Source: Minisyncoccota bacterium (lineage in GTDB: Bacteria; Patescibacteriota; Minisyncoccia; Phycocordibacterales; UBA9973). From it: DNA of 64,000 nt. Below the pieces are notes generated by a model that made no database searches, was not told where the DNA came from, and saw only the letters and a program-made list of their open reading frames with translations. The translations under genes were made by a program, and so were the position numbers. The stretch is taken from the NCBI GenBank assembly GCA_041667145.1, contig JBAYFP010000001.1, positions 17,958 to 81,957 on the forward strand, written 5' to 3'. Shown piece by piece: positions 1 to 17,991 of the stretch; positions within the stretch are counted from its first letter, which is position 1, and every line of letters begins with the position of its first letter.

Positions 1-158
1 AGGATGCATACCCTGTAGTCAGCTTTGCTGTACTACTGGGGTTCGAATAAGTTTGGTGAAAGGGTAGTAATTTACCCCATACCACTAACCACTATATCTC
101 TAGGAAGTTCACAATGTTCACATGTGCATAAGTGAACGTTGTCTTTTATTGAGAGAAA

Positions 159-440
159 TTGTATAGTTTTTGTATGGCATATCTATATGTATTTTTATTT
201 GCATTAATATTTATCACATCAGGTATCATTAATCTCAACCCTAAACTACGTGTTTGGGCTATAAACTATAACAATCAAATGAGAGGTATTAAAACCGAAA
301 TTACAGAAAAAACCCATAAAACATATTTTTACTTTGGTTTATTTTCATTAATAATTGGCATATGTATTTTAATATTTGCTATTTTATTTTCGCTAAAAAT
401 TTGTACTCTGATTACACCATTTTATTGGTGTCCTAAATAA
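159..440 (+). CDS. hypothetical small membrane protein
   Basis: 93-aa ORF with two hydrophobic segments; no recognisable motif. Confidence 0.25.
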   Translation: MYSFCMAYLYVFLFALIFITSGIINLNPKLRVWAINYNNQMRGIKTEITEKTHKTYFYFGLFSLIIGICILIFAILFSLKICTLITPFYWCPK

Positions 441-448
441 CATATCTG

Positions 449-476
449 GCTCCAGACTTGGGAGGATGTTCGAATG
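449..476 (+). repeat. 28-bp direct repeat copy A (GCTCCAGACTTGGGAGGATGTTCGAATG; SD GGGAGGA + ATG)
   Basis: near-identical copies at 1520-1547 and 2047-2074; followed by 6-codon ORF MSIIGE*. Confidence 0.8.
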
Positions 477-500
477 AGTATAATAGGGGAGTAGAAAGAG

Positions 501-535
501 ATAAAATAAAACCCCTCGACTTTCATCAAGGGGCC
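501..535 (-). terminator. rho-independent terminator downstream of pepE
   Basis: minus-strand hairpin CCCCT/AGGGG (512-516 with 529-533) followed by T-rich run (plus 501-511). Confidence 0.4.
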
Positions 536-613
536 GATAGTATATTCTATCCGATTACCTATACCTATAACCACTTTTGATTTTTATTACTATTTGGATG
601 TTTTTTCCGAAAA

Positions 614-1357
614 TTACAACATTTCTTTTTCCGGATAAGGCTTACCAGGTAGCCAAAGTGTTGGTTCTTTGGCATTTTTGAAAATAACCGCTTCTCCCTT
701 TCCCTTGAGGATGTATTCGTCATTTTCCACGACAATCCAACATCCCTCTGGCAAACCGATAACTGTTTGATTTTGGTTCCACATAAGAAATTGCTGGATT
801 CTCTCTCCACGTGTTTCCCCCATATGTTTTTCTACGAGGGCTCCAGAAACAAAATGTGGATTGATTTGGAAAGGAACTAAACCCAGAGCTTTGTCGCTTC
901 TTGGGAATATGGGGGCCATGTCATTTGTTGTCATCATGCTGGGACAAGCTACAACGGTACCAGCACTTGCGCTGATATATTTCCATTCGCAGGAACTGAC
1001 CTTTCCAAGAATTCGATGAATGAGCTCAAATTCATGAAGCCAGTACGCCAATGTCCATGTGTTGCCTCCGCCGATACAGATGGCTATGATCGAAGGATCA
1101 GAGAAACAGTCTCGAGCTGGATATGAAGTGATGTCTACGAGCTCATATCCTAGTTCGGCAAATGGTTCGGAAACCATTTTTGTATAATCTGTATAACCTG
1201 TATAACCTCCGTTTGCCTTTGCATATGGAATAAACACGATTTTATTTTTCCCTTGGATTGCGGGTCCCAAGAAATTCTTTAAGTCATCAAGACAATGACC
1301 CCAGAATTTACCATCTTGGTAGCGAGAACTACTGATTAGAAAAAGTTGTTTCATCAC
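614..1357 (-). CDS. pepE: dipeptidase E (peptidase S51, alpha-aspartyl dipeptidase)
   Basis: full-length resemblance to PepE, including GGGNT and TTNDMP-like motifs; AAGGAG SD 6 nt upstream of ATG. Confidence 0.75.
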   Translation of the reverse strand: MMKQLFLISSSRYQDGKFWGHCLDDLKNFLGPAIQGKNKIVFIPYAKANGGYTGYTDYTKMVSEPFAELGYELVDITSYPARDCFSDPSIIAICIGGGNTWTLAYWLHEFELIHRILGKVSSCEWKYISASAGTVVACPSMMTTNDMAPIFPRSDKALGLVPFQINPHFVSGALVEKHMGETRGERIQQFLMWNQNQTVIGLPEGCWIVVENDEYILKGKGEAVIFKNAKEPTLWLPGKPYPEKEML

Positions 1358-1519
1358 TATCTCCTTAATTGATTGTGAATTTTTTATTTATATTATTTGT
1401 AGCAACCAAATTTTTATAAAGAAACGTATTAGACAAAACGTAGAAAAACTTTTATCTCAAAGAATTGTATTTAATTACAAATTACCACATATTTAATTAT
1501 GAGTCAATTTTCCCACGAT

Positions 1520-1547
1520 GCTCCAGACTTGGGAGGATGTTCGAATG
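1520..1547 (+). repeat. 28-bp direct repeat copy B
   Basis: identical to copy A; followed by 8-codon ORF MEMIKMNN* and a hairpin. Confidence 0.8.
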
Positions 1548-1573
1548 GAAATGATAAAAATGAATAACTGAAA

Positions 1574-1604
1574 AAGCCTGTCCCCTCATAGAGAGGACAG
1601 GCTT
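1574..1604 (+). terminator. perfect 10-bp hairpin AAGCCTGTCC..GGACAGGCTT
   Basis: stem 1574-1583 with 1595-1604, 11-nt loop, followed by GTATTTG. Confidence 0.35.
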
Positions 1605-2046
1605 GTATTTGACAGTTCTATATCAACATATAATCGCCTTATTTAGAGATGTCAGCTCTGCATAGGCAATGGGAATCAGTCAAAATATATCTCGGAAGGA
1701 ATCTTAGAATGTGATTCCCTAGATCTTCCAGAACCATCCGAGACATAGCTCAGTTTAAAAAAATAGAATCTCCGACATTACTGAGCATCATTCGGGATAA
1801 TGAAGACTAATATGACTGCACTGGCGTATCTTAAAAGTTGTCTTCGAAACTCTTAAGATAAAAAACATAGGCCCTTACAGTTTAGATAATAAAGAACTAC
1901 AACAAATGTAGAAGGAGGCAAATATCACCTAACTCCTACATAATCAGGATAGCATATTCTGATTTAAAAGTCAAGCATTTTTAAAATACTTTTTTGAAAC
2001 ATAAATAATTCTTATAAAATAAGGCTACATTGAATTGCTCCAAACT

Positions 2047-2074
2047 TGGGAGGATGTTCGAATGGCTATACTTA
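2047..2074 (+). repeat. 28-bp direct repeat copy C (one substitution)
   Basis: GCTCCAAACTTGGGAGGATGTTCGAATG; followed by 10-codon ORF. Confidence 0.8.
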
Positions 2075-2206
2075 ACGAAAAAGAGCCCGTGTGATTATTT
2101 AATAATCCACAGAAATTATAAAAATATTTCTCTATAATAATAGTTAACTTAAAAGTTATTAACAACGAAAACTTGTTATTTTGCGTGATTTTGGTATATT
2201 GACAAT

Positions 2207-2806
2207 ATGGTCAAATTGGTCAATCGTACAGATTTTGTGTCTAAAATTAAGGCTAAAAAGATTAGTCTTTTTTCTGGACGTGAGATTCAAACATTATTTG
2301 GAGTTTCTAAGGTTGCTACCACTGGCATATTGCATCGTTATAGCAAGCAAGGTTTTATCATCCAAATTAAACGAGGTTTGTATGCGTTTCCTGATGCTTT
2401 ACCTCCTGAATTGTATCTTGCTAATAAACTCTATGATCCATCCTATATCTCAAGAGAGTTTGCTCTGTCATATCGTGGGATAATTCCTGAGATGGTATAT
2501 GAAATTACATCAGTGACAACTAAGGCTACACAAAAATTTAAAGCATTAGGTAAAATATATTCTTATCGTACGATTAAAAAATCTGCTTTTACTGGGTACA
2601 CAGTAGAGAAACAGCAAGGTTTTACTTTTCGCATAGCAGATGCAGAAAAAGCATTTGTTGATACTCTTTATTATCGCGTTATTTTTGGAAAAAAACCTAT
2701 AAGTCGTTTTAATAAAGAAAAAATAAATAAAAATAAAGCACTTAAATATGGTGAACTTTTTGATAATCCTAAACTTATTGGTATACTAAAGAGAACATTA
2801 TCATGA
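2207..2806 (+). CDS. AbiEi-family antitoxin / transcriptional regulator (type IV TA)
   Basis: N-terminal wHTH-like pattern ...LFGVSKVATTGILHRYSKQGFIIQIKRGLYAFPD typical of AbiEi; stop overlaps start of the next gene (ATGA). Confidence 0.55.
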   Translation: MVKLVNRTDFVSKIKAKKISLFSGREIQTLFGVSKVATTGILHRYSKQGFIIQIKRGLYAFPDALPPELYLANKLYDPSYISREFALSYRGIIPEMVYEITSVTTKATQKFKALGKIYSYRTIKKSAFTGYTVEKQQGFTFRIADAEKAFVDTLYYRVIFGKKPISRFNKEKINKNKALKYGELFDNPKLIGILKRTLS

Positions 2807-3567
2807 TTGGACCAGAACTATTAGAAAATATTGCACGACAGGAACAAACAAGCATATTCCCGAATATTGTTCGTGAATATGTGCAACATTTGTTTTTAAC
2901 CGAGTTATATCAACTTCCAGAATCGGAGAAATTGCTTTTTAAAGGTGGCACTGCTCTGCGTATAGTTTATAATTCGCCACGTTTTTCAGAAGATTTAGAC
3001 TTTTCTTTATTTGGAGTTCCTTCTAATGAAATTGGATCATTTGTTGATCGTTTATTTCTTGACGTTCTTGCAAAACTTGAAAGTACAGGTATTCACATAG
3101 AAATCGATAATAAATCTGCTCGGACATCTGGTGGATACTTTGGTCTAGCTACTCTCAATACAAATGGTTATCCTCCTATAAACATTGAAATCAATATATC
3201 ATCTAGAGGTGGAAATCATATTCAAGGAGAAATAGATAGTATCACAAATAATTTTGTACCAACGTATACGCTTTATCATTTACCACAAAAAGATATGGTT
3301 GATGAAAAAATATTTGGTGCATTGATTGATAGGAAAAAACCTCGTGATTATTATGATTTATATTTTTTGATGCGTAAGGGGATGTTGTCTCCAGAGCAAA
3401 AAAAACATCTTAGTGAAGTTGCAAAAGAAATCATTGATAGTTCTAAACAAGTTGATTTTCAAGGAGAACTTGGAATATTTTTACCTGCAAGCCAACAATC
3501 TATTATACGTGATTTTCCCCAAACATTAGAAAGAGAAATGCGTAATCAACTTTCCTTTAATCAATAA
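2803..3567 (+). CDS. AbiEii/AbiGii-family nucleotidyltransferase toxin (abortive infection)
   Basis: hallmark FKGGTALRIVYNSPRFSEDLDFS motif of the DUF1814/AbiEii NTase family; 4-bp overlap with upstream AbiEi. Confidence 0.75.
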   Translation: MIGPELLENIARQEQTSIFPNIVREYVQHLFLTELYQLPESEKLLFKGGTALRIVYNSPRFSEDLDFSLFGVPSNEIGSFVDRLFLDVLAKLESTGIHIEIDNKSARTSGGYFGLATLNTNGYPPINIEINISSRGGNHIQGEIDSITNNFVPTYTLYHLPQKDMVDEKIFGALIDRKKPRDYYDLYFLMRKGMLSPEQKKHLSEVAKEIIDSSKQVDFQGELGIFLPASQQSIIRDFPQTLEREMRNQLSFNQ

Positions 3568-3664
3568 AATTGTTATTTAATATAATATTCTATTACAGAA
3601 GATACGACTCTATTTTTTTAGTTATTAAATAATATGTAAATACTAAAAGTACTTTAATTAAAAT

Positions 3665-4948
3665 ATGGCTGATCCAATACGCACCAAAAAAGTTAGCATT
3701 TTTGCTGAAACTAAAGTAGTTGTAGAAGGCAAAGAATTACTTATAAAACTAAATACTCTAGTTGACGCAGATAAATTTCTTGCACTATCAGAAGAGGAGA
3801 AAAAAACCTTTTTACTCCAAGAGGCAAATAAAACATCACCAACACCAGTTAGTGGTATTTTTACCCTAAACTCATCTTTCAAGTATGTTAACCCAAGTTT
3901 TTTGAAAGAATTTAATTATGGAAATGTTTTAGTTGAATTAAATATTCCATATTGCTTACATATTCCAAATGGATATGAGCTAGAAGTTATGTTTTCAAAA
4001 GACACAAAACAAATGGCACTTATAATCCCTTCAAAAATTTGGACTCAAAAAGCACAAACCAACAAAGAACGATCTGATGAAACAGATTTTTTTGCTGATG
4101 ACAGAGTTCTCTATTTTCGCAAAAATGCAATAGTGGGTCCTAAAATGCCCTTAGACTTATCAGAGGGTTGGGAGCAAAATTATACAGGTTTTAATGTGAA
4201 TAGAATAAAAGATAGAAATGGAAGATTTCGCTTTACGCATTTATATATACAGTTTGATTTAACTGCTACTGAAAAAGAGTTAGAAAATAAGTTTAATTCT
4301 AATATAGTAATTGAAAAAGTAAAAGACATAACATTCCAAGTAGTTAATAAACTTATAGATGCCTATAGATTTACAACAAACGAAGAATATATCACTAGGC
4401 TTGGAGAAGTTAGTTTAACTATGATTTATTTCATTGATTTAAATCAAGGTATTTATTTATCACAAGTAAATACAGAGGTGGCACCAATGAATAGGTCTAA
4501 ACCAGAAATAGAAAAAATAGAAGAAATGTTAGATAAAGGAGATAGCCCAGATTTATATACTTTACTATTATTAGACGCACAGAACTCTTTCAATACCAAA
4601 AACTATCCTCTCGCTGTAGTCCAATCATTTCAAGCACTAGAAATCTTTATTGAAAATTTTTTAATTAAAGGATTTATTGATGTTGGTAAAACAGAAATAG
4701 AAGCTTCTGATTATATAATTCAAAGTAATAATTGGATGACTAAAACCAGATTAAAAGAGTTACTTAAAGAAATTAAAGGAAAATCTTTACAAGAAATAGA
4801 TCAATCTCTTTGGGATAAATGGTGCACCACCTACGATGTAGTAAGAACTGCTGTCATACACAAAGGTAAAGAACCTATTGTCTCTGAAATAAAAAATACT
4901 CTTGAAAATAATTTTCAAGTTATTGAGTTACTAAAATCATTGGTTTAA
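3665..4948 (+). CDS. hypothetical protein, possible C-terminal HEPN-like domain (Rx4H)
   Basis: 427 aa, no known catalytic motif except C-terminal VVRTAVIH (R-x4-H) preceded by helix-like ALEIFIENFL; sits in a defense island. Confidence 0.3.
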   Translation: MADPIRTKKVSIFAETKVVVEGKELLIKLNTLVDADKFLALSEEEKKTFLLQEANKTSPTPVSGIFTLNSSFKYVNPSFLKEFNYGNVLVELNIPYCLHIPNGYELEVMFSKDTKQMALIIPSKIWTQKAQTNKERSDETDFFADDRVLYFRKNAIVGPKMPLDLSEGWEQNYTGFNVNRIKDRNGRFRFTHLYIQFDLTATEKELENKFNSNIVIEKVKDITFQVVNKLIDAYRFTTNEEYITRLGEVSLTMIYFIDLNQGIYLSQVNTEVAPMNRSKPEIEKIEEMLDKGDSPDLYTLLLLDAQNSFNTKNYPLAVVQSFQALEIFIENFLIKGFIDVGKTEIEASDYIIQSNNWMTKTRLKELLKEIKGKSLQEIDQSLWDKWCTTYDVVRTAVIHKGKEPIVSEIKNTLENNFQVIELLKSLV

Positions 4949-5160
4949 GTAATTTTTATTTTCATAATAAAAACTATTCAGTTAATTGAATAATTCAAAT
5001 AATACTATTTTTTATTTTTTGTTATAATGATAATAATCAGCCGAAAGTTAAAAGCTGTTTTTAACTTACTTACCCTTCTTTAATATAGACCTAACAGTAA
5101 AAGTCGCTTCTAGCTTCTTGTTTTATTAGGTCCTAATATTATTAAATAAAATTAAAAAAT

Positions 5161-5562
5161 ATGTCTACAATAAAACAAAAAAAACTAGCAAAAGAAATAG
5201 TAAATAATATGAAAAGAACAAAACCCATTAATAAAGGAAAATTGGTGGAAATGGTTGGATATAGTAAAATAACAGCGGAAACAAAACCCGGAGAAATAAT
5301 TCATCAAAAAGGTGTTCAAGAAGAATTAAAAGAATTAGGTTTTGATGAAGATTCTGCAAAAAAGGTTGTTAGTGAAATAATGAATAATCCAAAAGCAGAA
5401 CCAGGTGCTAGATTAAAAGCAACGGACCAGGTATTTAAAGTTTTGGGTTTGTATTCTCCAAAAGAACCTGTTAATAAATTTGCTGGATGGAGCAGAGAAC
5501 AATTAATAGATCTAATCCTTTCAAAAATTACAAACAAATCAATTCATGTAGTTAGTCATTAG
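5161..5562 (+). CDS. phage terminase small subunit-like HTH protein
   Basis: N-terminus KQKKLAKEIV..GKLVEMVGYSKITAETKPGEIIHQKGVQEEL follows the Terminase_2 pattern (KQxxFxxEY..AGYSxKTA..). Confidence 0.35.
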   Translation: MSTIKQKKLAKEIVNNMKRTKPINKGKLVEMVGYSKITAETKPGEIIHQKGVQEELKELGFDEDSAKKVVSEIMNNPKAEPGARLKATDQVFKVLGLYSPKEPVNKFAGWSREQLIDLILSKITNKSIHVVSH

Positions 5563-5565
5563 AAG

Positions 5566-5973
5566 CTATTTTAAAAGACTTAGAAGAGGTAATAATGTTG
5601 CAGGAGAAATAATAAATATTGTATTTGATACAAACATAAGAATATTAATAAATACTAATAAAATCATAATCCATTTCTCTATTTCTCTTTCTTCATCAAT
5701 TTTAAAGATAGCTATTATTCCAAAAATAGCTGATATAAATATAGGCATTACATAAAAAATATAAAAAGGCACCCAATCTAAAAAATCTGGAACAGATAAA
5801 ATTTGAGATACAGATAAATGTTTATATATAAATTTAGGTACCCATTCATCTGGTATATATATCCCTAATAAATGTGATACAGAATATTCACCAACAAGCA
5901 AATAAAATATTGTAAAAATTACTGCCAGAATTGAAAATTTATTTATCTTTTTAAGCATGTGTTTATAAAACAA
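5566..5973 (-). CDS. hypothetical membrane protein
   Basis: 135 aa, 4 hydrophobic helices. Confidence 0.4.
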   Translation of the reverse strand: MFYKHMLKKINKFSILAVIFTIFYLLVGEYSVSHLLGIYIPDEWVPKFIYKHLSVSQILSVPDFLDWVPFYIFYVMPIFISAIFGIIAIFKIDEEREIEKWIMILLVFINILMFVSNTIFIISPATLLPLLSLLK

Positions 5974-7119
5974 TTACTGCTCATGTATAGCTGAATAATT
6001 AATAATAGAACCTAAGCTCTCTAATTCACCTACAGTTACAGATGTTGGTATACCAAACCAACAACCATTCTTTTTTAAGAAAGCTCCTCCACCAGAATTA
6101 CCATGTTCTATCTTAGCTGATGTCTTAATCATATATCCCTCAAATCCGCTTATAACTCCCTCTGTGGCAGTAATAGTGTCACCTCCTACTCCTGGATAAC
6201 CCAAAATTATGATTTCATCACCTAACTTAATACTACTAGATCGACAAAGGTTATGTGCAACTGTACTAACACTGTCTGGAAGAGTCTGTATTGGTTTAAG
6301 TAAGGCAATATCTAAAGTTGGGACGGTAGAAGCAACACTGGTGTCATACCAACGTACGGGAGATTTCTTTATATCATCTGTAACCCCCACACTGCATAAA
6401 ACTGAGTCTTTTACTACATGTAAGTTAGTTAAAATAAATTTATTTAACCCGAAAATAGTTCCACTCCCTACAACAAAATTTTCAGAAGATCCATCAGAAC
6501 AGATTATCCTAACTATATATTTTGCTAAGTCACTCGCAAGCAGTGAACTGTTTGCCTGAGTAGAAGTGATAATTTTTTGTGGTTTGTTTTTGAGTATTTC
6601 TACTTCTTGTCTTAAATTTTCAACTTCTAGATTTTTTAATTTTTGTGTTTCTTTATCTTTTTTTTCTTTATTAATCTTTTCAATTTCATCTACTAGATTT
6701 ATTTTTTCTTTATTCAATACTTCCTTAAATATTTTTATGTCTTCTTCTGTAAAATTCTTTACTAATTTATTTACTTCATCGTTTTTATCTTCTCTTATAA
6801 GTTTTTGTACCCTCAAAACAACAGGAAACATTCTTTTTTCAGCTTGATAATTTTGATAGTACTTAAAGCCAAAATAACTAGCACCACCAATAACAACCAT
6901 ACTCAAAAATAGTATAGGGATAAACCACTTGTATTTTAAATATTTTATTTTAATCCCTTTTGATTTCAAAAACCTGAATATAAAATACGAAGTCAAAATG
7001 AGAAACAGAAAGACAATAAAATAAATGATCTCATTAGTAGAAATACTACTTTTCTGATGTGTAGTTTCTAAAATCGTAGGTGAAACTTCTTCTTTTGGAA
7101 ATTCATAAGGTATTATCAT
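5974..7119 (-). CDS. membrane-anchored trypsin-like serine peptidase (S1 family) with coiled-coil
   Basis: N-terminal TM, KE-rich coiled coil, C-terminal domain with TNLHVV (His), DIALL (Asp), GNSGG (Ser) motifs. Confidence 0.6.
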   Translation of the reverse strand: MIIPYEFPKEEVSPTILETTHQKSSISTNEIIYFIVFLFLILTSYFIFRFLKSKGIKIKYLKYKWFIPILFLSMVVIGGASYFGFKYYQNYQAEKRMFPVVLRVQKLIREDKNDEVNKLVKNFTEEDIKIFKEVLNKEKINLVDEIEKINKEKKDKETQKLKNLEVENLRQEVEILKNKPQKIITSTQANSSLLASDLAKYIVRIICSDGSSENFVVGSGTIFGLNKFILTNLHVVKDSVLCSVGVTDDIKKSPVRWYDTSVASTVPTLDIALLKPIQTLPDSVSTVAHNLCRSSSIKLGDEIIILGYPGVGGDTITATEGVISGFEGYMIKTSAKIEHGNSGGGAFLKKNGCWFGIPTSVTVGELESLGSIINYSAIHEQ

Positions 7120-7123
7120 AATT

Positions 7124-7726
7124 TTAATTTTCTATTTCATAATAAAAGTCTTTCCCATTTTCTCGTTTACAAAATGATGAATAATAATTTCCATTATTAA
7201 TGAATAATATAGTTAATCCATCTGATTTCCAAAATAAACATAATAATTCCTCGTCATTTTTTATTGCTTCAAGAGAATATTTTTTTGAAAGCCCATACAA
7301 AAACTCATAAGAGTAATAAATAACTATTATTAATAGTGACAATATAGTAAACCATTGCTTTTCAAAAATTGAGGATAAAAGTAAAACAACAAACGAGATA
7401 TTGACCACATATTCTCTTGTGGGAGAATTTGGAGTTAATAAAAAGAAAGCTATTACTGAAAAAGGCAGAGTAAGAAGTAATATAAAATTACTAGTTACAA
7501 AACTATAAATTATAAGAGCTAATATCAGTACAAACGGGACTGCAGCACTAAGCATAGTTCTTGTTCTTAAATTTTTTGGCACCTTGTGTCCTGATATTAT
7601 CCAATTTAAAGCATTGCCTTTTGCTACGAGTAATTGACTTTCTTTTTTATTAAGTGATTCTTGTAATTGGTCAAAATTAGTGAAGGGAAAATTTTTTAAA
7701 TACTCAATTTTTTCAAAATTTTTCAT
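7124..7726 (-). CDS. hypothetical membrane protein
   Basis: 200 aa, several TM helices. Confidence 0.4.
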   Translation of the reverse strand: MKNFEKIEYLKNFPFTNFDQLQESLNKKESQLLVAKGNALNWIISGHKVPKNLRTRTMLSAAVPFVLILALIIYSFVTSNFILLLTLPFSVIAFFLLTPNSPTREYVVNISFVVLLLSSIFEKQWFTILSLLIIVIYYSYEFLYGLSKKYSLEAIKNDEELLCLFWKSDGLTILFINNGNYYSSFCKRENGKDFYYEIEN

Positions 7727-8203
7727 AAATTATTTACTAGAACGCAAAAAGCTCCCAGCCAGCTTGATGGTTTTTAAGCCACCCGTATCCGTTTCCAGAT
7801 ACGACACAGTGAAGTGTAAACTCTGACTAGGAGTTCTTTATTCTTCACTGTGTTTTTAACCATACCTTATAGCTTTTTAAGCAATAAGGGTTAGGTCCTG
7901 TTTATTTAATTGTATTTATATTGTAACAAAAGAGAATTTGATAGTCTAATGTTTTTTTATTTGACTTTTAAAGCTTAGGAGTTAGAATAGAAATGTAGAG
8001 TTTTTAAAAAATAAAATATATGGCTTCTATTATTCAGAGAGTTTTTGTTTTTCCGCGAGACCAATAATTTTGGATACGCGAGATAGTCTTTAAAAGATTA
8101 AACCTGAAAATTGAATGCTAAATTATTACTAAAAAGATAACTCTTTTTAGGGTGTATTTAGTGTTTAATTTTTAGCTTAGGTCTAAAAATGAACAAATAA
8201 ATT

Positions 8204-8226
8204 ACCGCCAGTCGCGGTTTTTTTAT
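8204..8226 (+). terminator. small hairpin + T7 run
   Basis: ACCGC..GCGGT stem followed by TTTTTTT. Confidence 0.3.
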
Positions 8227-8261
8227 TTGTCTAAGCACTTCTTATTATACCCTTAATTTTT

Positions 8262-8432
8262 ATGGAATTAAGTGAGAAGGCAAAAAAAGAATTAAAACAA
8301 ATTCTTCAAAAGGAAATAGGTTTCGAGAGTGTCTCAATGCTCACTGATCAAGAGATTAATCATCTTGGTGTTTTTTTTCTTTCTATTTTTACTGAATCAC
8401 TCAAAATGAAAAATCTTAAAAAAAGCATATAA
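8262..8432 (+). CDS. small ORF (56 aa) immediately upstream of the serine recombinase
   Basis: ATG 8262 to TAA 8430-8432, MELSEKAKKELKQILQKEIGFESVSMLTDQEINHLGVFFLSIFTESLKMKNLKKSI; position suggests a helper/RDF-like protein but no motif. Confidence 0.2.
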   Translation: MELSEKAKKELKQILQKEIGFESVSMLTDQEINHLGVFFLSIFTESLKMKNLKKSI

Positions 8433-8440
8433 TATAAATT

Positions 8441-10111
8441 ATGGATAAAGATTTTTATAAAAACTTAAAAGTAGCAGGTTATTCTAGAAAATCATCTGAA
8501 GCAGAAGATAGACAAGTACTTTCTATAGGCTCACAAAAAGATGAGATAGAGAAAATGAAAGAATTAAATGGAATTACAGACACAATTTATTACGAAGACA
8601 GTAAATCAGCAAAAACTCCAGGAATAAGAGATCATTTTTCAAACATGATACAGGATATAAAAAATGGTAAAAGAAATGCAATTGCATGTTGGAAACCCGA
8701 CAGACTTGCAAGAAATATGGATGAGGGTGGAGAGATTATAGATTTATTACAAAGAGGAATTATCAAATCAATAATTACGCCTAGTAAAACCTATACACCT
8801 TCTGAACCAAGCTGGTCATTACTTCTTGAATTTGGTATGGCTAATCAGTTTAGTCGTGATTTATCTGTAAACGTAAAAAGAGGTCAAAATAAAAAAGCTA
8901 GAATGGGTATTCCACATGGATTAGCAAAAATAGGTTTTTTGAATGACAAAACTGAAGAAAAAGGAAATAGAAAATGGTTGATTGACGAAAAAAGATTTCG
9001 AATAATAAAAGAGGTATTTAAGGTATATCTAACTGGTAATTATTCTGGAGGTCAAATGTATGATCTAGCAATAAGAGCCGGACTTACTACACCAAAACAC
9101 AAACATAGTGGTGGTAATTCAATAACCCATTCTAGAATATATACAATATTAAAAGATACAATATATGCTGGTTTTTTTCATCAAGGAGGAGAAAGATACG
9201 AGTTAGATAAAACCTTACCTAGAATTATTACCGAAGATGAACACGAGAAAGTACTTAGAATGCTTTCTGGTAAAAATATACCAAAAACACAAACTCATCA
9301 ATCGATGTATGGCGGTTTTATAATATCACCTCAAAATAAATCCATAGGTACAGACTGTAAATTTCAAATTATATGTGAGTGTAAATACAAATTTTCTTAT
9401 ATTAATAAAACTCATTGTCCAAAATGTGGAAAAGAAATAATTTTAATAAAAAATCCAAAATATCTTGAGTATGAATATTATTACAATGTTGCCTTGAAAA
9501 AGAAAAAGTGGTCAATTAAAAATATTTCACAAAGTAAAGTTACTGATTTTTTATTAGAATTTGCGGATAAGTTTTCAATGTCCCCCGCTCTTGCAAATTG
9601 GTCCAGACGCCATATCCATGAAATTCATGATTCTGAAGTTGAATCAAAATTAGTGGTTGTAGAAAGTCAAAAGGAAAGGATTGAACAACTAGAAACAAAA
9701 AAGGAAAGATACCGTAATATGTTAGCTGATGAGATGATAGAAAGAGAAGAATACGAACATGACACAAAGAAATTTAGCGCCGAAATAGAAAAAATTAAAC
9801 AAAATTCACAAAACCAAGTAAATTGGCTACAAGAAGCTGAAAAAATAATTGACTTGGGGTTAGAAATGAAAAAAATAATCAAAAATGGAACCACAATGGC
9901 AAAAAGAGAGATACTTTCTAAACTCGGTTCGAACCTAATCTGGGACGAGGAAGAACTCAATATTATCAACAAAAAACCAATCCAAGTGCTGATCGATGGA
10001 CTTCTTTGGGCCAAACAAAAAAATCCTAAGTTCGAACCTAGTTCTATAGTTGATACATCAAGTCAGAATGATGTTTTTGAGGACATTCGTCCTATCTTGC
10101 TCCGGGGGTAG
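8441..10111 (+). CDS. large serine recombinase (resolvase/invertase catalytic domain + recombinase domain + zinc ribbon)
   Basis: N-terminal AGYSRKSSEAEDRQ..SIGSQ catalytic-serine motif, DRLAR, C-terminal CPKCGKE zinc ribbon; 556 aa; 3' end overlaps the tRNA 3' end. Confidence 0.85.
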   Translation: MDKDFYKNLKVAGYSRKSSEAEDRQVLSIGSQKDEIEKMKELNGITDTIYYEDSKSAKTPGIRDHFSNMIQDIKNGKRNAIACWKPDRLARNMDEGGEIIDLLQRGIIKSIITPSKTYTPSEPSWSLLLEFGMANQFSRDLSVNVKRGQNKKARMGIPHGLAKIGFLNDKTEEKGNRKWLIDEKRFRIIKEVFKVYLTGNYSGGQMYDLAIRAGLTTPKHKHSGGNSITHSRIYTILKDTIYAGFFHQGGERYELDKTLPRIITEDEHEKVLRMLSGKNIPKTQTHQSMYGGFIISPQNKSIGTDCKFQIICECKYKFSYINKTHCPKCGKEIILIKNPKYLEYEYYYNVALKKKKWSIKNISQSKVTDFLLEFADKFSMSPALANWSRRHIHEIHDSEVESKLVVVESQKERIEQLETKKERYRNMLADEMIEREEYEHDTKKFSAEIEKIKQNSQNQVNWLQEAEKIIDLGLEMKKIIKNGTTMAKREILSKLGSNLIWDEEELNIINKKPIQVLIDGLLWAKQKNPKFEPSSIVDTSSQNDVFEDIRPILLRG

Positions 10112-10416
10112 GGATCGAACCTACGACCAATCGCTTACACTTTATCTTCTATTACTAGAAGTGTGGACTATATCATCTCCATGTTCATAACTTATGAATT
10201 TAGGAGCAAGGCGCTTCGCGCTCTAATAAATATTAGAGAGCTACTCCAAAATGGATAGTCTCTACACCTTCCTCAATTTTGTAATTGAGGCTTGGCTCGG
10301 GATTACCCTAAAAGGGCTTCCCCGAATTCACCTTGTTGTTCAACCTACCTTTTGATAGGAAGCTGCGTAATTTTTTATCGACACAGGCGACCGCTCTACC
10401 GCTGAGCTACCCCGGA
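10100..10416 (-). tRNA. tRNA (probably Asn-GUU) interrupted by a group I intron in the anticodon loop
   Basis: 5' exon TCCGGGGTAGCTCAGCGGTAGAGCGGTCGCCTGT (10383-10416) and 3' exon TAAGCGATTGGTCGTAGGTTCGATCCCTACCCCCGGAG (10100-10137) fold into a 72-nt cloverleaf with anticodon loop CUGUUAA; exact splice junction not resolvable by eye. Confidence 0.7.
10138..10382 (-). ncRNA. group I intron (IC3-like, Azoarcus/cyanobacterial tRNA intron type)
   Basis: contains AATCCCGAGCCAAGCC and GGAAGGTGTAGAGACTATCC, matching the conserved P7/P3 region (GAGCCAAGC, GAAGGUGUAGAGACUA) of Azoarcus tRNA-Ile and cyanobacterial tRNA-Leu introns. Confidence 0.7.
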
Positions 10417-10561
10417 ATGTATTTAATTAATGAAAGAACTTTAATTATCTTAACAGAAAATGAGTAAAAAACAATAGAGTAGATTTATTATTGAATTTAA
10501 AGTATAATATGAATTATATTATTAATAATCAAAATCATAACCGTTTAAGGCGGTAAATTAT

Positions 10562-10687
10562 ATGGCAAAAAGAAGTACAACCCTTGGTCCAAAAAAGAAA
10601 TCACGACGTTCACATAAGACAAAGAAAAGATTAGAAATTAAAAGGCTTATGCTAGCTAAAAAGGCTACTAAAAGAAAACATAAGTAA
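10562..10687 (+). CDS. small highly basic protein (41 aa), ribosomal-protein-like
   Basis: MAKRSTTLGPKKKSRRSHKTKKRLEIKRLMLAKKATKRKHK; AAGGCGG SD upstream; the LAKKATKRKHK tail loosely resembles bL35. Confidence 0.3.
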   Translation: MAKRSTTLGPKKKSRRSHKTKKRLEIKRLMLAKKATKRKHK

Positions 10688-10689
10688 AT

Positions 10690-12641: not shown

Positions 12642-14402
12642 ATGAAAAGCGAGACGAAGCAATGTCAAAACTGCAAACAAGACTTTACAATAGAACCAGA
12701 AGATTTTAATTTCTATGAGAAAATAAAGGTTCCTCCACCGACTTTTTGCCCACTTTGTAGGGCAGAAAGGCGATTTACTTTTAGGAATGAACGTAAGCTT
12801 TTTAAAGTAAAAGATTTTTATACTGATAAGGATATTTTTTCTTTATATCCAGCACGTGATAGTAAAAAAAATTTTACTCAAGAAGAGTGGTTTAGTGACA
12901 ATTGGGATGCATTAGAATATGGTCGTGATTATGATTTTTCTATACCATTTTTTAAACAATTTTTTGATTTAGAAAAAGTAGTTCCAGTTTGGCCGCTTCG
13001 AGTTGAATACGTCGTAAATAGTCCATATAGTGCTAATGCCTCAGCACTTAAAAATTGTTATTTATGTTTTAATTCAAGTCAATCAAAAGATTGTATGTAT
13101 AATAATGCAATAGACTTCAGTACAGACTGTATTGATAATTCCCATATTTTTCAATCAGAACGATGCTATGAATGTTTTTGGACGGATAATTCCTACCAAT
13201 GTTATTATTCTATAATTTGTAAAGAATCCCATAATCTTTATTTTTGTAAAAATTGTCTCGGATGCTCGGATTGTTTTGGATGTGTAGATTTAAGGAAATC
13301 CTCGTATTGTATTTTTAATAAGCAATATACAAAAGAGGATTATAAAAAGGAGATAGAGAATATGAAATTAAATACCATTTCTGGAGTTTCAAGAGCAAGA
13401 GAGAAGGCTCGAGTTTTTTGGTTGACTATGCCAACAAAATATCATCAAGGTTTAAAAAATTACGATTCGACTGGTTCTTATGTAACGAATTGCAAAAACG
13501 TAAAAGAAAGTTTTCTAATGAGAGAAGGAGAAAATATTAAATATTCTCAATATTTACAAGTTCCGAAAAATAAAGATTGTTATGATGCTACTGCATGGGG
13601 ACAGAATATGGAACTTAATTATGAAACTTGTCTTTGTGGGGAAAATTCTTTTAATATAAAATTTTGTTCAGATTGCTGGCCTAATTTTAAAGATTCTGAA
13701 TATTGTATAAGTATGTTTAGTTGCTCGGATTGTTTTGGATGTGTTGGTTTAAAGAAAAAACAATATTGTATTTTGAATAAACAATATACAAAAGAAGAAT
13801 ATAAAATTTTAGTAGAAAAAATTAAAAAACATATGGATGATATGCCTTTTGTTGACAGTAAAGAAAGGATATATAAATATGGAGAATTTTTTCCTATAGA
13901 ATTTTCTCCATTTGGTTATAACAATACAACAGCAATTCAGTATTTTAAAATGACAAAGGAAGAAGCAGAAAAAAAGGGTTATCCATGGAAAGAAATTGAA
14001 AGGGGTGAATATAATATCACTAAAAAAGTATCAGAACTTTCTGATTCTATTAACGATGTTGATGATTCTATCTTAAAAGAAGTAATAGAATGTGAAAACT
14101 GTAAGAGACCTTATCGTATTTTAAAGAATGAATTTATTTTTTATAAAAAAGAAAATTTACCTCTACCTGATTTGTGTGATGAATGTCGTTTTAGAAGAAG
14201 AATTAATGACAGGCTGGGGATTAAGTTGTATGAAAGGTCCTGTATGTGTAAAAGCGATTCTGATGAAACAGGTGTCTATAAAAATACTGTAGAACATATA
14301 CATGGTAATGAACCTTGTGGTGAAATATTTAAAACTGGATATAGCCCTGATTCTAAAGAGATAGTATACTGTGAGAAATGTTATCAGCAGGAGGTTTATT
14401 AA
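12642..14402 (+). CDS. cysteine-rich protein, paralog 1 (about 60 Cys; N- and C-terminal zinc-ribbon-like CxxC pairs; internal repeats)
   Basis: CQNCKQDF..CPLCR N-terminal ribbon; internal duplicated blocks ..CKNCLGCSDCFGCV.. and ..CSDCFGCVGLKKKQYCILNKQYTKEEY..; C-terminal CENCK..CDECR..CEKCY. Confidence 0.6.
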   Translation: MKSETKQCQNCKQDFTIEPEDFNFYEKIKVPPPTFCPLCRAERRFTFRNERKLFKVKDFYTDKDIFSLYPARDSKKNFTQEEWFSDNWDALEYGRDYDFSIPFFKQFFDLEKVVPVWPLRVEYVVNSPYSANASALKNCYLCFNSSQSKDCMYNNAIDFSTDCIDNSHIFQSERCYECFWTDNSYQCYYSIICKESHNLYFCKNCLGCSDCFGCVDLRKSSYCIFNKQYTKEDYKKEIENMKLNTISGVSRAREKARVFWLTMPTKYHQGLKNYDSTGSYVTNCKNVKESFLMREGENIKYSQYLQVPKNKDCYDATAWGQNMELNYETCLCGENSFNIKFCSDCWPNFKDSEYCISMFSCSDCFGCVGLKKKQYCILNKQYTKEEYKILVEKIKKHMDDMPFVDSKERIYKYGEFFPIEFSPFGYNNTTAIQYFKMTKEEAEKKGYPWKEIERGEYNITKKVSELSDSINDVDDSILKEVIECENCKRPYRILKNEFIFYKKENLPLPDLCDECRFRRRINDRLGIKLYERSCMCKSDSDETGVYKNTVEHIHGNEPCGEIFKTGYSPDSKEIVYCEKCYQQEVY

Positions 14403-14405
14403 ATA

Positions 14406-14460
14406 CCCAGACGTTGGACATCTGGGGATTATCCATAGTTCCAGATGTCCAACATCTGGG
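14406..14460 (+). other. pair of GC-rich hairpins (inverted copies of a 21-nt unit) between the Cys-rich paralogs
   Basis: CCCAGACGTTGGACATCTGGG (14406-14426) and CCAGATGTCCAACATCTGG (14441-14459), each self-complementary. Confidence 0.5.
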
Positions 14461-14471
14461 TGAAGAAAATC

Positions 14472-16238
14472 ATGGAGTATAAAAATGAAAATAAAATATG
14501 TCAAAACTGTAAACAAGATTTTACAATAGAGCCAGAAGATTTCAATTTTTATGAAAAAATAAAGGTACCTTCACCGACGTTTTGTCCACTTTGTAGGGCA
14601 CAGAGAAGATTTGCTTTTAGAAATGAAAAAAAATTTTTTCGTACAAAAAGCGCATTTTCTAATAAGGACATTTTTTCTTTATTACCCAAAGAAAGTCAAA
14701 GAAAAATTGTGACCGAAGAAGAGTGGCATGGAGATACATGGGACGCGATGGAATATGCTAGTGAAATAGATTTTTCAAAACCATTTTTGAAACAAATTTT
14801 AGATTTAGAAAAACTAATACCCATTTATAATCTAAATTGTCAATTTATGGTAAATAGTCAGTATTCAGGGAATGCGACAGCCCTTAGAAATTGTTATCTT
14901 TGTTTTAATTCTAACCATTCTGAAGATTCTATGTATGGGAATGCAATCGATAGCTCAAAGGATTGTGTAGATAATTCACATGTAAACCATTCTGAAAGAT
15001 GTTATGAATGTTTTTGGTTAGAAAATTGTTATCAATGTTATTTTTCGATAATATGTAAAGATTCTTTTAATCTATATTTTTGTAAGAATTGCGTAGGATC
15101 TTCAAATTGTTTTGGGTGTATGAATTTAAGTAAATCATCTTTCTGTATTTTTAATAAACAATATACAAAAGAAGAATATGAAATTGAAATAGAAAAAATG
15201 AAATTGAACACAATTTCAGGAATTTCAAAAGCTAGAGAAAAAGCACGTATATTCTGGTTAACTAAACCAGTAAAAAATCATCAGGGTTTGAAGAATTTGA
15301 ATTCAACAGGTTCTTATGTGACAAATTGTAAAAACGTAAATGATAGTTATTTAATTAGGGAGAGTGAAAATATGCGTTATTGTCAGTATATGCAGGTTTC
15401 AGGTAACAAGGATTGTTATGATACCTCTATTTGGGGAGAACACATGGAGTTGGATTATGAGACTTGTCTTTCTGGTGAAAATTCTTACAATTTAAAATTC
15501 TGCTTAAATTGTTGGCCAGCTTGTCGGAATAATGAATATTGTATTAATCTTTTTAGTACGACGGATTGTTTTGGTTGTGTTGGTTTGAAAAAGAAACAGT
15601 ATTGTATCTTAAATAAACAATATACAAAAGAAGAATACGAAATTTTGGTAGAAAAAATTAAGAACCATATGTATGAAATGCCATATGTTGATTCACAAGG
15701 TCTTGTTTATAAATATGGGGAGTTTTTCCCAATAGAATTTTCAGCATATGGATACAACAATTCGATTGCTTTTCAACATTTCCCGATTACGAAAGATGAG
15801 GCAGAAAAAAGGGGATATTTATGGATTGAAGTTCCTCATGGAGAATATACTATTACGAAAAAAGTTTCGGATCTCCCAGATTCGATTGATGATGTTGATG
15901 ATAATTTTTTAAGGGAAGTTGTAGAATGTGAAAATTGTAAAAATGCTTTTCGTGTCTTAGAGGATGAATTAAATTTTTTACAAAAAGAGAAACTTCCTTT
16001 ACCGACGATGTGTCATGATTGTAGACATAAAAGAAGGATAAGTGATAGATTGGAAATAAAATTATATGAAAGATCTTGTATGTGCAAGGGGGACTTTGAT
16101 GAAACTGGTGTTTATAAAAATACTGTAAAACATATACATAGTGATGAACCTTGCGGTGAAATATTTAAAACTGGATATAATCCTGATTCAAAAGAAATAG
16201 TATATTGTGAAAAATGTTATCAGCAGGAGGTATATTAA
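14472..16238 (+). CDS. cysteine-rich protein, paralog 2 (tandem duplicate of 12642-14402)
   Basis: roughly two-thirds identical to paralog 1 along full length; start moved to the Met aligned with paralog 1 (the ORF-track start 14445 overlaps the hairpin). Confidence 0.6.
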   Translation: MEYKNENKICQNCKQDFTIEPEDFNFYEKIKVPSPTFCPLCRAQRRFAFRNEKKFFRTKSAFSNKDIFSLLPKESQRKIVTEEEWHGDTWDAMEYASEIDFSKPFLKQILDLEKLIPIYNLNCQFMVNSQYSGNATALRNCYLCFNSNHSEDSMYGNAIDSSKDCVDNSHVNHSERCYECFWLENCYQCYFSIICKDSFNLYFCKNCVGSSNCFGCMNLSKSSFCIFNKQYTKEEYEIEIEKMKLNTISGISKAREKARIFWLTKPVKNHQGLKNLNSTGSYVTNCKNVNDSYLIRESENMRYCQYMQVSGNKDCYDTSIWGEHMELDYETCLSGENSYNLKFCLNCWPACRNNEYCINLFSTTDCFGCVGLKKKQYCILNKQYTKEEYEILVEKIKNHMYEMPYVDSQGLVYKYGEFFPIEFSAYGYNNSIAFQHFPITKDEAEKRGYLWIEVPHGEYTITKKVSDLPDSIDDVDDNFLREVVECENCKNAFRVLEDELNFLQKEKLPLPTMCHDCRHKRRISDRLEIKLYERSCMCKGDFDETGVYKNTVKHIHSDEPCGEIFKTGYNPDSKEIVYCEKCYQQEVY

Positions 16239-16875: not shown

Positions 16876-17991
16876 ATGGTAAAAATACTAAAGAAACAGG
16901 GGAAAATAGTCAAAGTCAAAAAACAAAACAAAAAAACTGTTTCACTTAAAACTCGTAAAAAAGGCAAAAAAATAATTAAAATAGCGAAACTTAAAAGATT
17001 TTCGCATAATCCAATTATTGAGCCTAGCCCATATCCTTGGGAATCCAAAGCTACATTTAATCCAACTGCCTTTTTAGTGGATGGAAAAATTCATCTTATT
17101 TATCGAGCAATCGGTGATGATGATGTATCAGTTTTAGGATATGCTTCTAGTTTAGATGGTTCTAAAATAAAAGAAAGGTTTGCATATTCTATTTATAATA
17201 AATTTGGAAAATTTGTAAAATCTGGAGAGCCTATAAACTATATTTCAGGAGGGGGGTGGAATGGTGGTTGTGAAGATCCACGTGTTACTTTGATAGATAA
17301 TGTAGTTTATATGATTTATACAGCTTTTGATGGTTGGGGATCTTTACGAATGGCTTTAACTTCTATCAAACTAGATGATTTTAAAAAAAAGAAATGGAAC
17401 TGGGAAAAACCAATTTTAATTTCTCCTCCTGGTGAAATTCATAAAAATTGGGTTTTATTTCCAGAAAAAATAAATGGTAAATTTGCGATTTTGCATAGTA
17501 TCTCTCCTAAAGTTTTAATAGATTATGTGAAAAATTTTGATGAATTTGATGGTACTAAATTTATAAAAAGTTATCACAGTAGCACTCCTTCTTGGGGAAA
17601 TTCATGGGATAATATAGTGAGAGGCGTAGGCCCAACGCCAATAAAAATCAAAATAGGTTGGCTTGTTTTATATCATGCCATGGATAGAAACGATCCCAAC
17701 AGATATAAATTGGGGGCTATGATTTTAGACCTCAAGGATCCAACAAAAGTTTTGTATCGTTCTCCTTGTCCAATATTAGAGCCAGATGAAGATTATGAGA
17801 ATGAAGGATTTAAAGCTGGTGTCATATATTCCTGTGGTGCAGTAGTGAAAGACGGACAGCTTTTTGTATACTATGGTGGGGCTGATAGTGTAGTTTGTGT
17901 AGCTTCTATAAAACTATCAGATTTGATAAATAATCTTGTGAAAAATAAAAATATTAAATTAGAAAAAAATAAAAAATTTGAACTTAATTAA
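16876..17991 (+). CDS. glycoside hydrolase family 130 (beta-mannoside phosphorylase-like, DUF377)
   Basis: GCEDPRV, YTAFDG, YYGGAD hallmark motifs. Confidence 0.7.
   Translation: MVKILKKQGKIVKVKKQNKKTVSLKTRKKGKKIIKIAKLKRFSHNPIIEPSPYPWESKATFNPTAFLVDGKIHLIYRAIGDDDVSVLGYASSLDGSKIKERFAYSIYNKFGKFVKSGEPINYISGGGWNGGCEDPRVTLIDNVVYMIYTAFDGWGSLRMALTSIKLDDFKKKKWNWEKPILISPPGEIHKNWVLFPEKINGKFAILHSISPKVLIDYVKNFDEFDGTKFIKSYHSSTPSWGNSWDNIVRGVGPTPIKIKIGWLVLYHAMDRNDPNRYKLGAMILDLKDPTKVLYRSPCPILEPDEDYENEGFKAGVIYSCGAVVKDGQLFVYYGGADSVVCVASIKLSDLINNLVKNKNIKLEKNKKFELN

Follow-up and report, generated by a model that had tools for sequence, protein, structure and literature searches.

A probable 8.07-kb integrative defence islet at the 3' end of a tRNA-Asn(GUU) gene in a Patescibacteria genome, with its own large serine recombinase

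We analysed a stretch of 64,000 nucleotides (the window) from contig JBAYFP010000001.1 of assembly GCA_041667145.1, which belongs to a low-GC genome of the Patescibacteria (candidate phyla radiation, CPR; Paceibacterota). Positions 2037-10103 of the window very probably constitute an integrated element of 8.07 kb, probably still mobile, which was inserted at the tRNA-Asn(GUU) gene's 3' end by its own large serine recombinase. An original prediction, made from the letters of the DNA, had proposed that an element carrying defence genes is integrated at the tRNA, with a recombinase at the junction, and the attachment (att) sites, the occupancy of the tRNA gene among genomes and the AbiE genes described below support it. 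The far boundary, which the same prediction had left undefined, is now marked by a sequence motif at position 2037 on the evidence of a flank match, relatives and attP junctions. Proteins were compared with the Pfam, PHROGs, NCBIfam and PADLOC families and RNAs with Rfam, and tRNAs were predicted with ARAGORN.

The motif had been described originally as an array of Shine-Dalgarno-type repeats (GCTCCRAACTTGGGAGGATGTTCGAAT). The repeat itself is real and corresponds to a 28-nt motif, GCTCCAGACTTGGGAGGATGTTCGAATG, with three exact copies starting at positions 449, 1520 and 2037 (copies 1 to 3) and no further copy in the window, where 0 are expected by chance. Its reading changes, as we assign the motif to an attachment site and its ATG is not conserved. 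Four lines of evidence, i.e., the distal position of the motif in relatives, the match of its left flank, attP-type junctions and a step in GC content at about 2 kb, indicate that the motif consists of the P' arm and the core of the attachment site.

Relatives of the recombinase were fetched from 80 species-representative loci with 28-78% identity. Four relatives have the motif in unchanged orientation, at the distal limit of a variable region (L003:3345, L004:2089, L021:463, and L206:4891), at 6.3-11.1 kb from the tRNA or the recombinase end. For the left flank, we used an anchored comparison of 45 nt in register, calibrated on 400 AT-matched controls (mean score 10.6, maximum 17). Copy 3 scored 20 against the unoccupied locus L101, where the controls reached 16-17 at most; the motif of L004 scored 23.5 against L084 and 22.5 against L101, and that of L003 scored 16.5 against L158. 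Since the left flank of copy 3 matches the sequence adjacent to the tRNA at recombinase-free loci, the B arm would be the neighbour of the tRNA before the insertion. Permissive BLAST scoring of in-silico attB sites gave no discrimination among the motif copies, and the anchored test was used in its place.

As for the attP junctions, a query with a predicted protein in which the recombinase frame is fused to the motif retrieved 13 homologues ending with ..LL[RQ]TW[ED]DVR.. and about 13 with other non-tRNA tails. The DNA of L202, L203, and L204 has the recombinase 3' end connected via (TT)GCTCC to RAACTTGGGATGATGTTCGG, with the tRNA absent, and in L206 the same P arm and GCTCC are joined to the end of another element. 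The GC content is 0.35-0.36 at positions 1-2000 and 0.26-0.31 at positions 2001-10000, and it goes up again past the tRNA.

The assignment of both attL and attR (Table 1) delimits the intact element. The two sites have only GCTCC (or TTGCTCC) in common, and the window contains no direct repeat of the tRNA 3' end of at least 14 nt, which is to be expected, since attL and attR of serine recombinases share only a short core. The original prediction had likewise seen no such repeat by eye; the repeat of 15-30 bp around 10100-10130 that it proposed to search for was not found, and the expectation was wrong, as the shared core is GCTCC alone. It had also considered that the window might start inside the element. 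The region 449-2036 holds relics at most, and 1-448 bears no sign of belonging to it.

We propose that the recombinase joins attP of the element with attB of the host and that strand exchange within GCTCC keeps the tRNA sequence intact. The host site attB would be composed of the downstream terminator of the tRNA (B arm), GCTCC (tRNA positions 70-73 plus one base) and the acceptor and T-arm (B'), with a predicted junction ..AAGGCTACATTGAATTGCTCCGGGGGTAGGGATCG.. made of TAAAATAAGGCTACATTGAATT-GCTCC-GGGGGTAGGGATCGAACC. The element site attP would comprise the final ~25 nt that code for the recombinase (P arm), GCTCC and the P' arm AAACTTGGGAGGATGTTCGAAT, with a predicted junction ..CGTCCTATCTTGCTCCAAACTTGGGAGGATG.. 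made of GAGGACATTCGTCCTATCTT-GCTCC-AAACTTGGGAGGATGTTCGAATGGC. At many other occupied tRNA-Asn loci (L085, L093, and others), the recombinase 3' end encodes, on the tRNA strand, a hairpin and then a T-run immediately behind the tRNA, within the 45 nt by its 3' end (e.g., CAGAGGCAAAAACCTCTGTTTTTT), which looks like a replacement for the displaced native terminator. No replacement of this type is predicted in the element of the window.

The recombinase, to judge from its sequence, has the full architecture of a large serine recombinase with a catalytic domain, a recombinase domain and a zinc ribbon with coiled coil. Its residues 11-156 match Pfam Resolvase (E 2.6e-16) and residues 187-277 match Pfam Recombinase (E 8.5e-08), and it matches the PHROG integrase family phrog_95 (E 1.6e-48). 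The closest solved structure is SprA/YokA of SPbeta, to which residues 7-474 could be aligned (E 3.5e-8), with ..YSRKS.. at the catalytic-serine region of SprA. The CxC...CxxC pattern (..ICECKYKF..HCPKCG..) and a heptad-rich stretch around residues 400-470 were read from the sequence. The closest relatives are from Minisyncoccia/Paceibacterota, and an identical copy is annotated in a metagenome-assembled genome of Candidatus Paceibacterota. The last 12 nt of the gene, including the TAG stop codon (10109-10111), lie inside the acceptor/T stem of the tRNA on the opposite strand, as had been noticed before.

The target tRNA is interrupted by an intron. Rfam identifies a group I intron at 10145-10456 on the minus strand with 66.7 bits (gathering score 50). 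ARAGORN reported zero tRNAs near 10.1-10.4 kb in the default mode and, with introns allowed, called c[10099,10416] a tRNA-Thr(UGU) with a 245-nt intron placed at 33/34. When joined at 35/36, the exons are identical base for base to the intron-less tRNA-Asn(GUU) of L002 and L003. The gene has the U1-A72/G73 features, which we take to be marks of bacterial tRNA-Asn. On this comparison the tRNA is tRNA-Asn(GUU), and its identification as Thr is a known artefact. Such a group I intron, at 35/36 of the Patescibacteria tRNA-Asn, has already been published together with the Thr miscall and experimentally validated splicing (PMC13011429), in a paper in which the neighbouring recombinase goes unmentioned. 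The intron of the window is real and of this known class, with splicing predicted for this copy. The intron-containing tRNA of the original prediction is thus borne out by Rfam and ARAGORN, with the amino acid, which it had not specified, now given as Asn. The loci L002-L004 carry the identical tRNA without the intron, indicating that the presence of the intron and the presence of the element are independent.

A locus with two elements suggests an explanation for the additional motif copies of the window. At L206:4891-21202, two different serine-recombinase elements stand in tandem at a single intron-containing tRNA-Asn. Element A has its motif beside the housekeeping genes RsgA and CSD and encodes a recombinase 77% identical to that of the window, with the P arm unchanged. 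Its GCTCC connects it to the left end of element B, which has its own large serine recombinase with a 13-nt overlap with the tRNA. The P arm of the outer recombinase (P0002, 605 aa) now continues into the left end of the inner element, which has given the protein a long foreign tail. This arrangement implies that newer elements insert between a resident element and the tRNA. By analogy, copies 1 and 2 of the window are probably relic attL sites of older insertions, pushed outward by newer elements at the tRNA. Minus-strand terminators are found at 535-510 near copy 1 and at 1604-1574 near copy 2. Loci without a recombinase show the motif, followed usually by one to a few ordinary accessory genes and then by the tRNA; we discarded the idea that such motif-bounded single genes are defence cassettes, the genes being ordinary accessory ones. 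The pattern of recombinase-less segments resembles the composite islands with pseudo-elements of the staphylococcal cassette chromosome (SCC). At the very start of the window, GCTTTGCTGTACTACTGGGGTTCGAATAAGT (22-52, plus strand) looks by eye like a shortened and degenerate version of the motif.

The occupancy of the tRNA gene varies. We scanned metagenome contigs for the exact 3' half of the tRNA-Asn and obtained 120 loci, 63 of which had sufficient flank to judge: 31 are occupied and 32 are empty. A recombinase relative abuts the tRNA in 23 of the occupied loci and lies just downstream in the other 8. The empty loci have no recombinase relative within 2-12 kb and typically show a terminator hairpin directly after the tRNA. 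Between the window, L003, and L004, only an RNA of the LOOT family, a 56-aa open reading frame (ORF) and the recombinase are conserved, whereas the cargo differs. The original prediction had named invariable conservation of these genes beside the tRNA as the finding that would speak against it; relatives differ in cargo instead, and half of the decidable loci are empty.

Several observations weigh against the element as we delimit it and against its mobility. Although the comparison with relatives that had been suggested could define the boundaries from occupied and empty loci, no near-isogenic empty site was found: the synteny with unoccupied loci extends over only ~25-31 nt by the tRNA, these loci having only the tRNA-adjacent terminator in common with the window, and in L097, which showed the best synteny, a different recombinase occupies the site. 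Terminal overlaps are absent from the attP-form contigs L202 and L203, and joining the end-cut genes of L203, which we tried, did not establish circularity. Tandem arrays may give rise to attP-type junctions as well, and the contig of L204 is 567 kb long. The inverted-repeat similarity between P and P' is weak (12/24, z 2.4), and no replication or transfer genes are recognisable in the element. To the left of copies 1 and 2, the flanks score at the control level and match nothing, and the segment after copy 1 carries a housekeeping-type PepE gene. Finally, L021 has two inverted motif copies (13259-13286 and 17461-17488, minus strand) on the 5' side of its tRNA-Asn, which the simple integration model leaves unexplained. 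Exact-protein look-ups of the flanking genes with longest-ORF starts gave no matches, and the corrected PepE start led only to a 1.4-kb contig of the same sample.

We consider it unlikely, even so, that the recombinase gene has been domesticated or immobilised in the chromosome and merely lies beside the tRNA, for instance as a remnant fixed in the lineage, in a region that is no longer mobile. Such a gene would fit with the excised form of the window element not having been observed, with the identical copy found in the same context in two assemblies, and with the absence of transfer genes. It fits less well with an intact ORF, in which the catalytic-serine region, zinc ribbon and coiled coil are aligned to SprA, with two att sites that are intact and near the family consensus, with the variable occupancy of the same tRNA, and with an independent assembly that breaks exactly at attR. 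This assembly of the same strain (Logan SRR6484324) covers the locus with the contigs L205 (99-1543) and L001 (1516-10126) and contains an identical copy of the recombinase. Its breaks fall within motif copy 2 and, at attR, 27 nt inside the tRNA, with copies 1 and 3 unbroken, and they may reflect population heterogeneity at copy 2 and attR. We rejected the contig ends as excision junctions, as their coordinates misfit simple attB/attP branch points.

L204:10001-11722 encodes an attP-form recombinase with its frame running through the motif and no tRNA within 10 kb. It is accompanied by genes for a TrwB-like coupling protein, an OLD nuclease, DruA and HATPase, with Bacteroidota-like secretion-tail proteins nearby.

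As for the cargo of the element, the AbiEi and AbiEii genes expected from the original prediction are present according to both Pfam and PADLOC, and their assignment as an abortive-infection or type IV toxin-antitoxin pair, the predicted defence cargo, is well supported. The membrane trypsin-like protease (Trypsin_2) and the membrane proteins were confirmed, too. The 427-aa protein, putatively HEPN-like in the original prediction, contains an R-x4-H string, RTAVIH, visible by eye, and a weak PADLOC match to PDC-M35A was found among the cargo at 3665-7726, none of which is conserved in the elements of relatives. Their defence-type cargo includes an OLD-family ATPase-TOPRIM (L021, L204), DruA (L204), a HerA-like ATPase (L003), HEPN_AbiU2, a deaminase and an SNase (element A of L206), and restriction-modification systems (L203 and element B of L206). 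The element is best described, from its predicted gene content, as an integrative defence islet from which phage structural genes are absent.

The phage satellite of the original prediction, or a prophage remnant, using the serine recombinase as integrase would account for the match to phrog_95, for a Phage_rep_O-like gene and a helix-turn-helix (HTH) protein in L203, and for defence cargo that is typical for satellites and prophages. We regard it as very unlikely. Capsid, portal, terminase, tail and packaging genes are all absent, with no PHROG structural or packaging match among 10 proteins tested (nine within the element), and the terminase-small-like label given to an HTH protein found no support in Pfam, PHROGs, or NCBIfam. 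No close relatives were found on viral contigs (IMG/VR), and the elements of relatives span 6-11 kb with defence or unknown genes only. Least of all do we believe that the 28-nt motif is just a repeat serving regulation or translation initiation (as a promoter, or as the Shine-Dalgarno sequence GGAGG with an ATG), the left boundary being elsewhere or absent. It is true that GGAGG precedes an in-frame ATG by 8 nt in each of the three window copies, that many copies are followed by a TATAAT-like box and that minus-strand terminators flank copies 1 and 2. However, the ATG position reads ATA, ACT or ACC in relatives, the motif is fused to the recombinase 3' end at GCTCC in L202, L203, and L204, and it marks the cargo boundary in four relatives with host tRNA-adjacent sequence abutting in register. 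A promoter role of the motif and its function as an att site could coexist.

Returning to the motif as an attachment site, the geometry of attB and attP suggests how the tRNA might be recognised. TCGAA starts 12 nt after GCTCC in B' (tRNA) and 17 nt after it in P'. The Listeria-phage integrase model (PMC3783163) is defined by a zinc-ribbon-domain motif located 5 bp farther out in attP than in attB, and the predicted geometry is consistent with this model, though it does not demonstrate it. In the tRNA-Gly branch (L079), a 10-nt common core, TGGAGCGGGT, is accompanied by TCGAACC at +18 versus +23. The tRNA-His branch (L047, L065) shows the common motif TGGGG..CCGARGGTTGGTATCAAAA and a shift of +5, and in the branch of L007 and L008 the shift is +4. 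The T-loop TCGAA, found at a constant distance from every tRNA 3' end, may be the outer recognition motif in B' contacted by the zinc-ribbon domain, which could explain the switching of the clade among Asn, His, Gln, Trp, Leu, Ala, and Gly tRNAs. Against this, the search for a core plus T-loop in other branches has an appreciable rate of chance hits and is persuasive only with the motif in two loci or with a long core.

The crossover falls within the codons ..TTG CTC C.., and the integrated gene ends with ..ILL-RG-TAG, the last eight bases of which, including the stop codon, are host tRNA. In the attP form, the recombinase reads ..ILL-QTWEDVRMAILNEKEPV, and the predicted 571-aa form ends with ..LLQTWEDVRMAILNEKEPV; attP-form proteins in the database carry the same tail. 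Because attP is located within the recombinase ORF, the C-terminus differs between the free and integrated states. Integration would swap a C-terminal tail of 13-19 residues for two tRNA-encoded codons and a stop, and the C-terminus would report the state of the element (..ILL-QTWEDVRMAILNEKEPV in the free or attP form and ..ILL-RG-stop when integrated). The recombinase frame through the motif is open over the first ten codons in 27 out of 30 distinct instances (16 and 22 for the other frames) and stops after 13-19 codons, and the downstream 'A-I-L' codons vary synonymously. The conservation of the tail peptide is, however, inseparable from the constraint of DNA binding on P', and in part it could just as well reflect a -10-like promoter box.

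The overlap with a tRNA extends well beyond the window. Of the 80 species-representative loci, 55 show the recombinase gene and a convergent tRNA overlapping at their 3' ends, the modal length being 11-12 nt. The targets are tRNA-His (23 loci), tRNA-Asn (21, including intron-containing genes miscalled as Thr), tRNA-Gln (5), tRNA-Trp and tRNA-Leu (2 each), and tRNA-Ala and tRNA-Gly (1 each). The hosts are mostly Patescibacteria, with Omnitrophota, Elusimicrobia, and others. In a protein-level survey of the 120 best recombinase homologues from a large protein database, the stop follows exactly two codons after the conserved ..LL in 77, and 9 read through the T-arm (..QGSNLRP..). Targeting of tRNA 3' ends has been stated not to be known for serine integrases, and a large island-mapping survey, in which 14 of 297 cases were of this kind, called for experimental proof (PMC7192596). 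This large and widespread clade of serine integrases targeting tRNA 3' ends is apparently undescribed in the literature we searched. We tentatively suggest, as a possibility well short of an even chance, that the clade, in Patescibacteria, Omnitrophota, Elusimicrobia and other phyla, is specialised on tRNA 3' ends via the T-loop, senses the integration state through the tail and thereby biases directionality or stability, and uses LOOT as a functional part of a module for recombination and maintenance.

The LOOT RNA lies in the non-coding stretch upstream of the recombinase, which is structured, as had been noted, but with a length of ~535 nt (7727-8261) rather than ~700 bp. Rfam also identifies LOOT in L003:8766-8892, L004:8033-8159, and L005:8503-8626. 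With a covariance model built from the four hits, LOOT was found in 17 of 84 recombinase-bearing sources, in 16 of them on the element side, with 0.5-8.6 kb between it and the recombinase downstream. Both strands are used, and the elements concerned have Asn, His, Leu, and Gln tRNAs as targets. A set of 100 tRNA-Asn metagenome loci gave only two hits, both 1.3-1.7 kb upstream of a recombinase, and none of the 32 empty tRNA-Asn sites contained LOOT. In total, 18 of 19 copies across the loci are located upstream of a recombinase relative, a distribution indicating an element-borne RNA linked to the recombinase clade. We also considered LOOT as a guide or bridge-type RNA and rejected it, as cognate LOOT/att matches measure 7.2 nt against 6.9-7.1 nt for non-cognate pairs. 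The 56-aa ORF directly upstream of the recombinase, which had been noted originally, was confirmed; it is conserved in L002 and L003, and ORFs with 36-37% identity occupy the same position in the attP-form L202 and L203. It is a candidate accessory factor, such as a directionality factor or regulator, and both LOOT and the ORF might be accessory parts of the recombination module.

Between LOOT and the 56-aa ORF, an inverted repeat with 37-nt arms (8101-8137 and 8142-8178) is 73% complementary, and the non-coding stretch at 8101-8235 contains a bidirectional terminator-like hairpin at 8204-8218. In L004, a match to the SAM riboswitch (8496-8596, minus strand; 48.3 bits, gathering score 44.4) is located inside the element near its LOOT.

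Table 1. Features of the element and its surroundings in the window
Feature	Positions	Strand	Basis and remarks
Motif copy 1	449-476	+	Exact 28-nt repeat; segment 449-1519 carries the PepE dipeptidase gene
PepE dipeptidase gene	614-1354	-	PepE equivalog, 202.7 bits (cut-off 156)
Motif copy 2	1520-1547	+	Exact 28-nt repeat; segment 1520-2036 is non-coding
B arm at attL	1992-2036		Predicted sequence adjoining the tRNA before insertion
Predicted attL (motif copy 3)	2037-2064	+	Core GCTCC 2037-2041, then P' arm AAACTTGGGAGGATGTTCGAATG
AbiEi	2207-2806	+	Pfam AbiEi_4; PADLOC E 3.6e-40
AbiEii	2803-3567	+	Pfam AbiEii; PADLOC E 4.1e-24; 4-nt overlap with AbiEi
427-aa protein	3665-4948	+	No family match
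133-aa protein	5161-5562	+	No family match
135-aa membrane protein	5566-5973	-	No family match
381-aa membrane-anchored trypsin-like protease	5974-7119	-	Pfam Trypsin_2 E 2.3e-17; HtrA-like
200-aa membrane protein	7124-7726	-	No family match
LOOT RNA (RF03000)	7766-7897	-	Rfam 77.1 bits (gathering 46.4); model positions 1-121 of 121
56-aa ORF	8262-8432	+	No family match
Large serine recombinase, 556 aa	8441-10111	+	Pfam Resolvase and Recombinase; PHROG; SprA alignment
Predicted attR	10074-10128	+	P arm ..GAGGACATTCGTCCTATCTT, the recombinase 3' coding end; core GCTCC 10099-10103; B' arm GGGGGTAGGGATCGAACC, the tRNA acceptor and T-arm
tRNA-Asn(GUU) with group I intron	10100-10416	-	Predicted integration target, giving the B' half of attR; Rfam, ARAGORN, exon comparison
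tRNA 3' exon	10100-10137	-	Set by comparison with intron-less genes
tRNA intron (245 nt)	10138-10382	-	Set by comparison with intron-less genes
tRNA 5' exon	10383-10416	-	Set by comparison with intron-less genes

Phage and prophage serine integrases (Listeria A118/LI Int, phiC31, Bxb1, SPbeta SprA) share with the recombinase the domain architecture, short att sites with a small common core, and a small upstream ORF as a possible directionality factor. Unlike in these systems, the target here is a tRNA 3' end, the ORF runs through attP, phage genes are missing and the similarity is low. The Ccr serine recombinases of SCC (SCCmec) insert islands at the extreme 3' end of rlmH/orfX. In both systems, a large serine recombinase places cargo at the very 3' end of a housekeeping gene that is conserved and kept active, and both show tandem accretion and recombinase-less relics bounded by att-type repeats (compare copies 1 and 2 of the window, and L206). 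The element differs from SCC by its tRNA target, a single recombinase instead of the CcrAB pair, defence instead of resistance cargo, and a host from another phylum; NCBIfam Ccr models match the recombinase with 42-50 bits, far under their cut-offs of 700-900.

The classical islands and prophages that target tRNA genes reportedly have tyrosine integrases, as Williams is said to have described in 2002 and as the Islander database is said to document (cited in PMC12884075 and PMC7192596). They resemble the element in the integrase gene beside the tRNA junction, the preserved tRNA, the variable cargo, in which defence genes are common, and the tandem arrays. However, their recombinases are of an unrelated family and chemistry, their direct repeat of the tRNA is 15-50 bp long in contrast to a core of 5-7 bp, and crossover takes place in the anticodon or T loop instead of at positions 70-73. 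An attP inside a gene is known from the archaeal SSV1 integrases and from the integration-dependent immunity of mycobacteriophages, both with tyrosine integrases. In these systems, too, the att site is located in a coding sequence and integration alters the product. Whereas SSV1 splits its integrase gene and the mycobacteriophages truncate their repressor, the last 13-19 residues of the recombinase would here be replaced by two tRNA-encoded residues.

Serine integrases have been regarded as not using tRNA genes, and the defined attL, attR and attP make such targeting directly testable. The T-loop as a motif at a fixed distance would provide a mechanistic rationale for target switching, and an integrase C-terminus coupled to the integration state would be unusual. 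For the orphan LOOT RNA, the association with the recombinase is a first clue from genomic context. The elements may offer the reduced CPR genomes a route to acquire and shuffle defence systems, and their integrases form a compact set whose landing sites are natural and highly conserved.

Just beyond the element, the host DNA encodes two tandem paralogous proteins of ~590 aa rich in CxxC motifs (cysteine-rich) at 12642-14402 and 14445-16238 (plus strand). Upstream of the tRNA, 10563-10688 (plus strand) encodes an extremely basic ORF of 41 aa (MAKRSTTLGPKKKSRRSHKTKKRLEIKRLMLAKKATKRKHK), whose DNA is conserved in L003:17468-17573 and L127:3383-3448.

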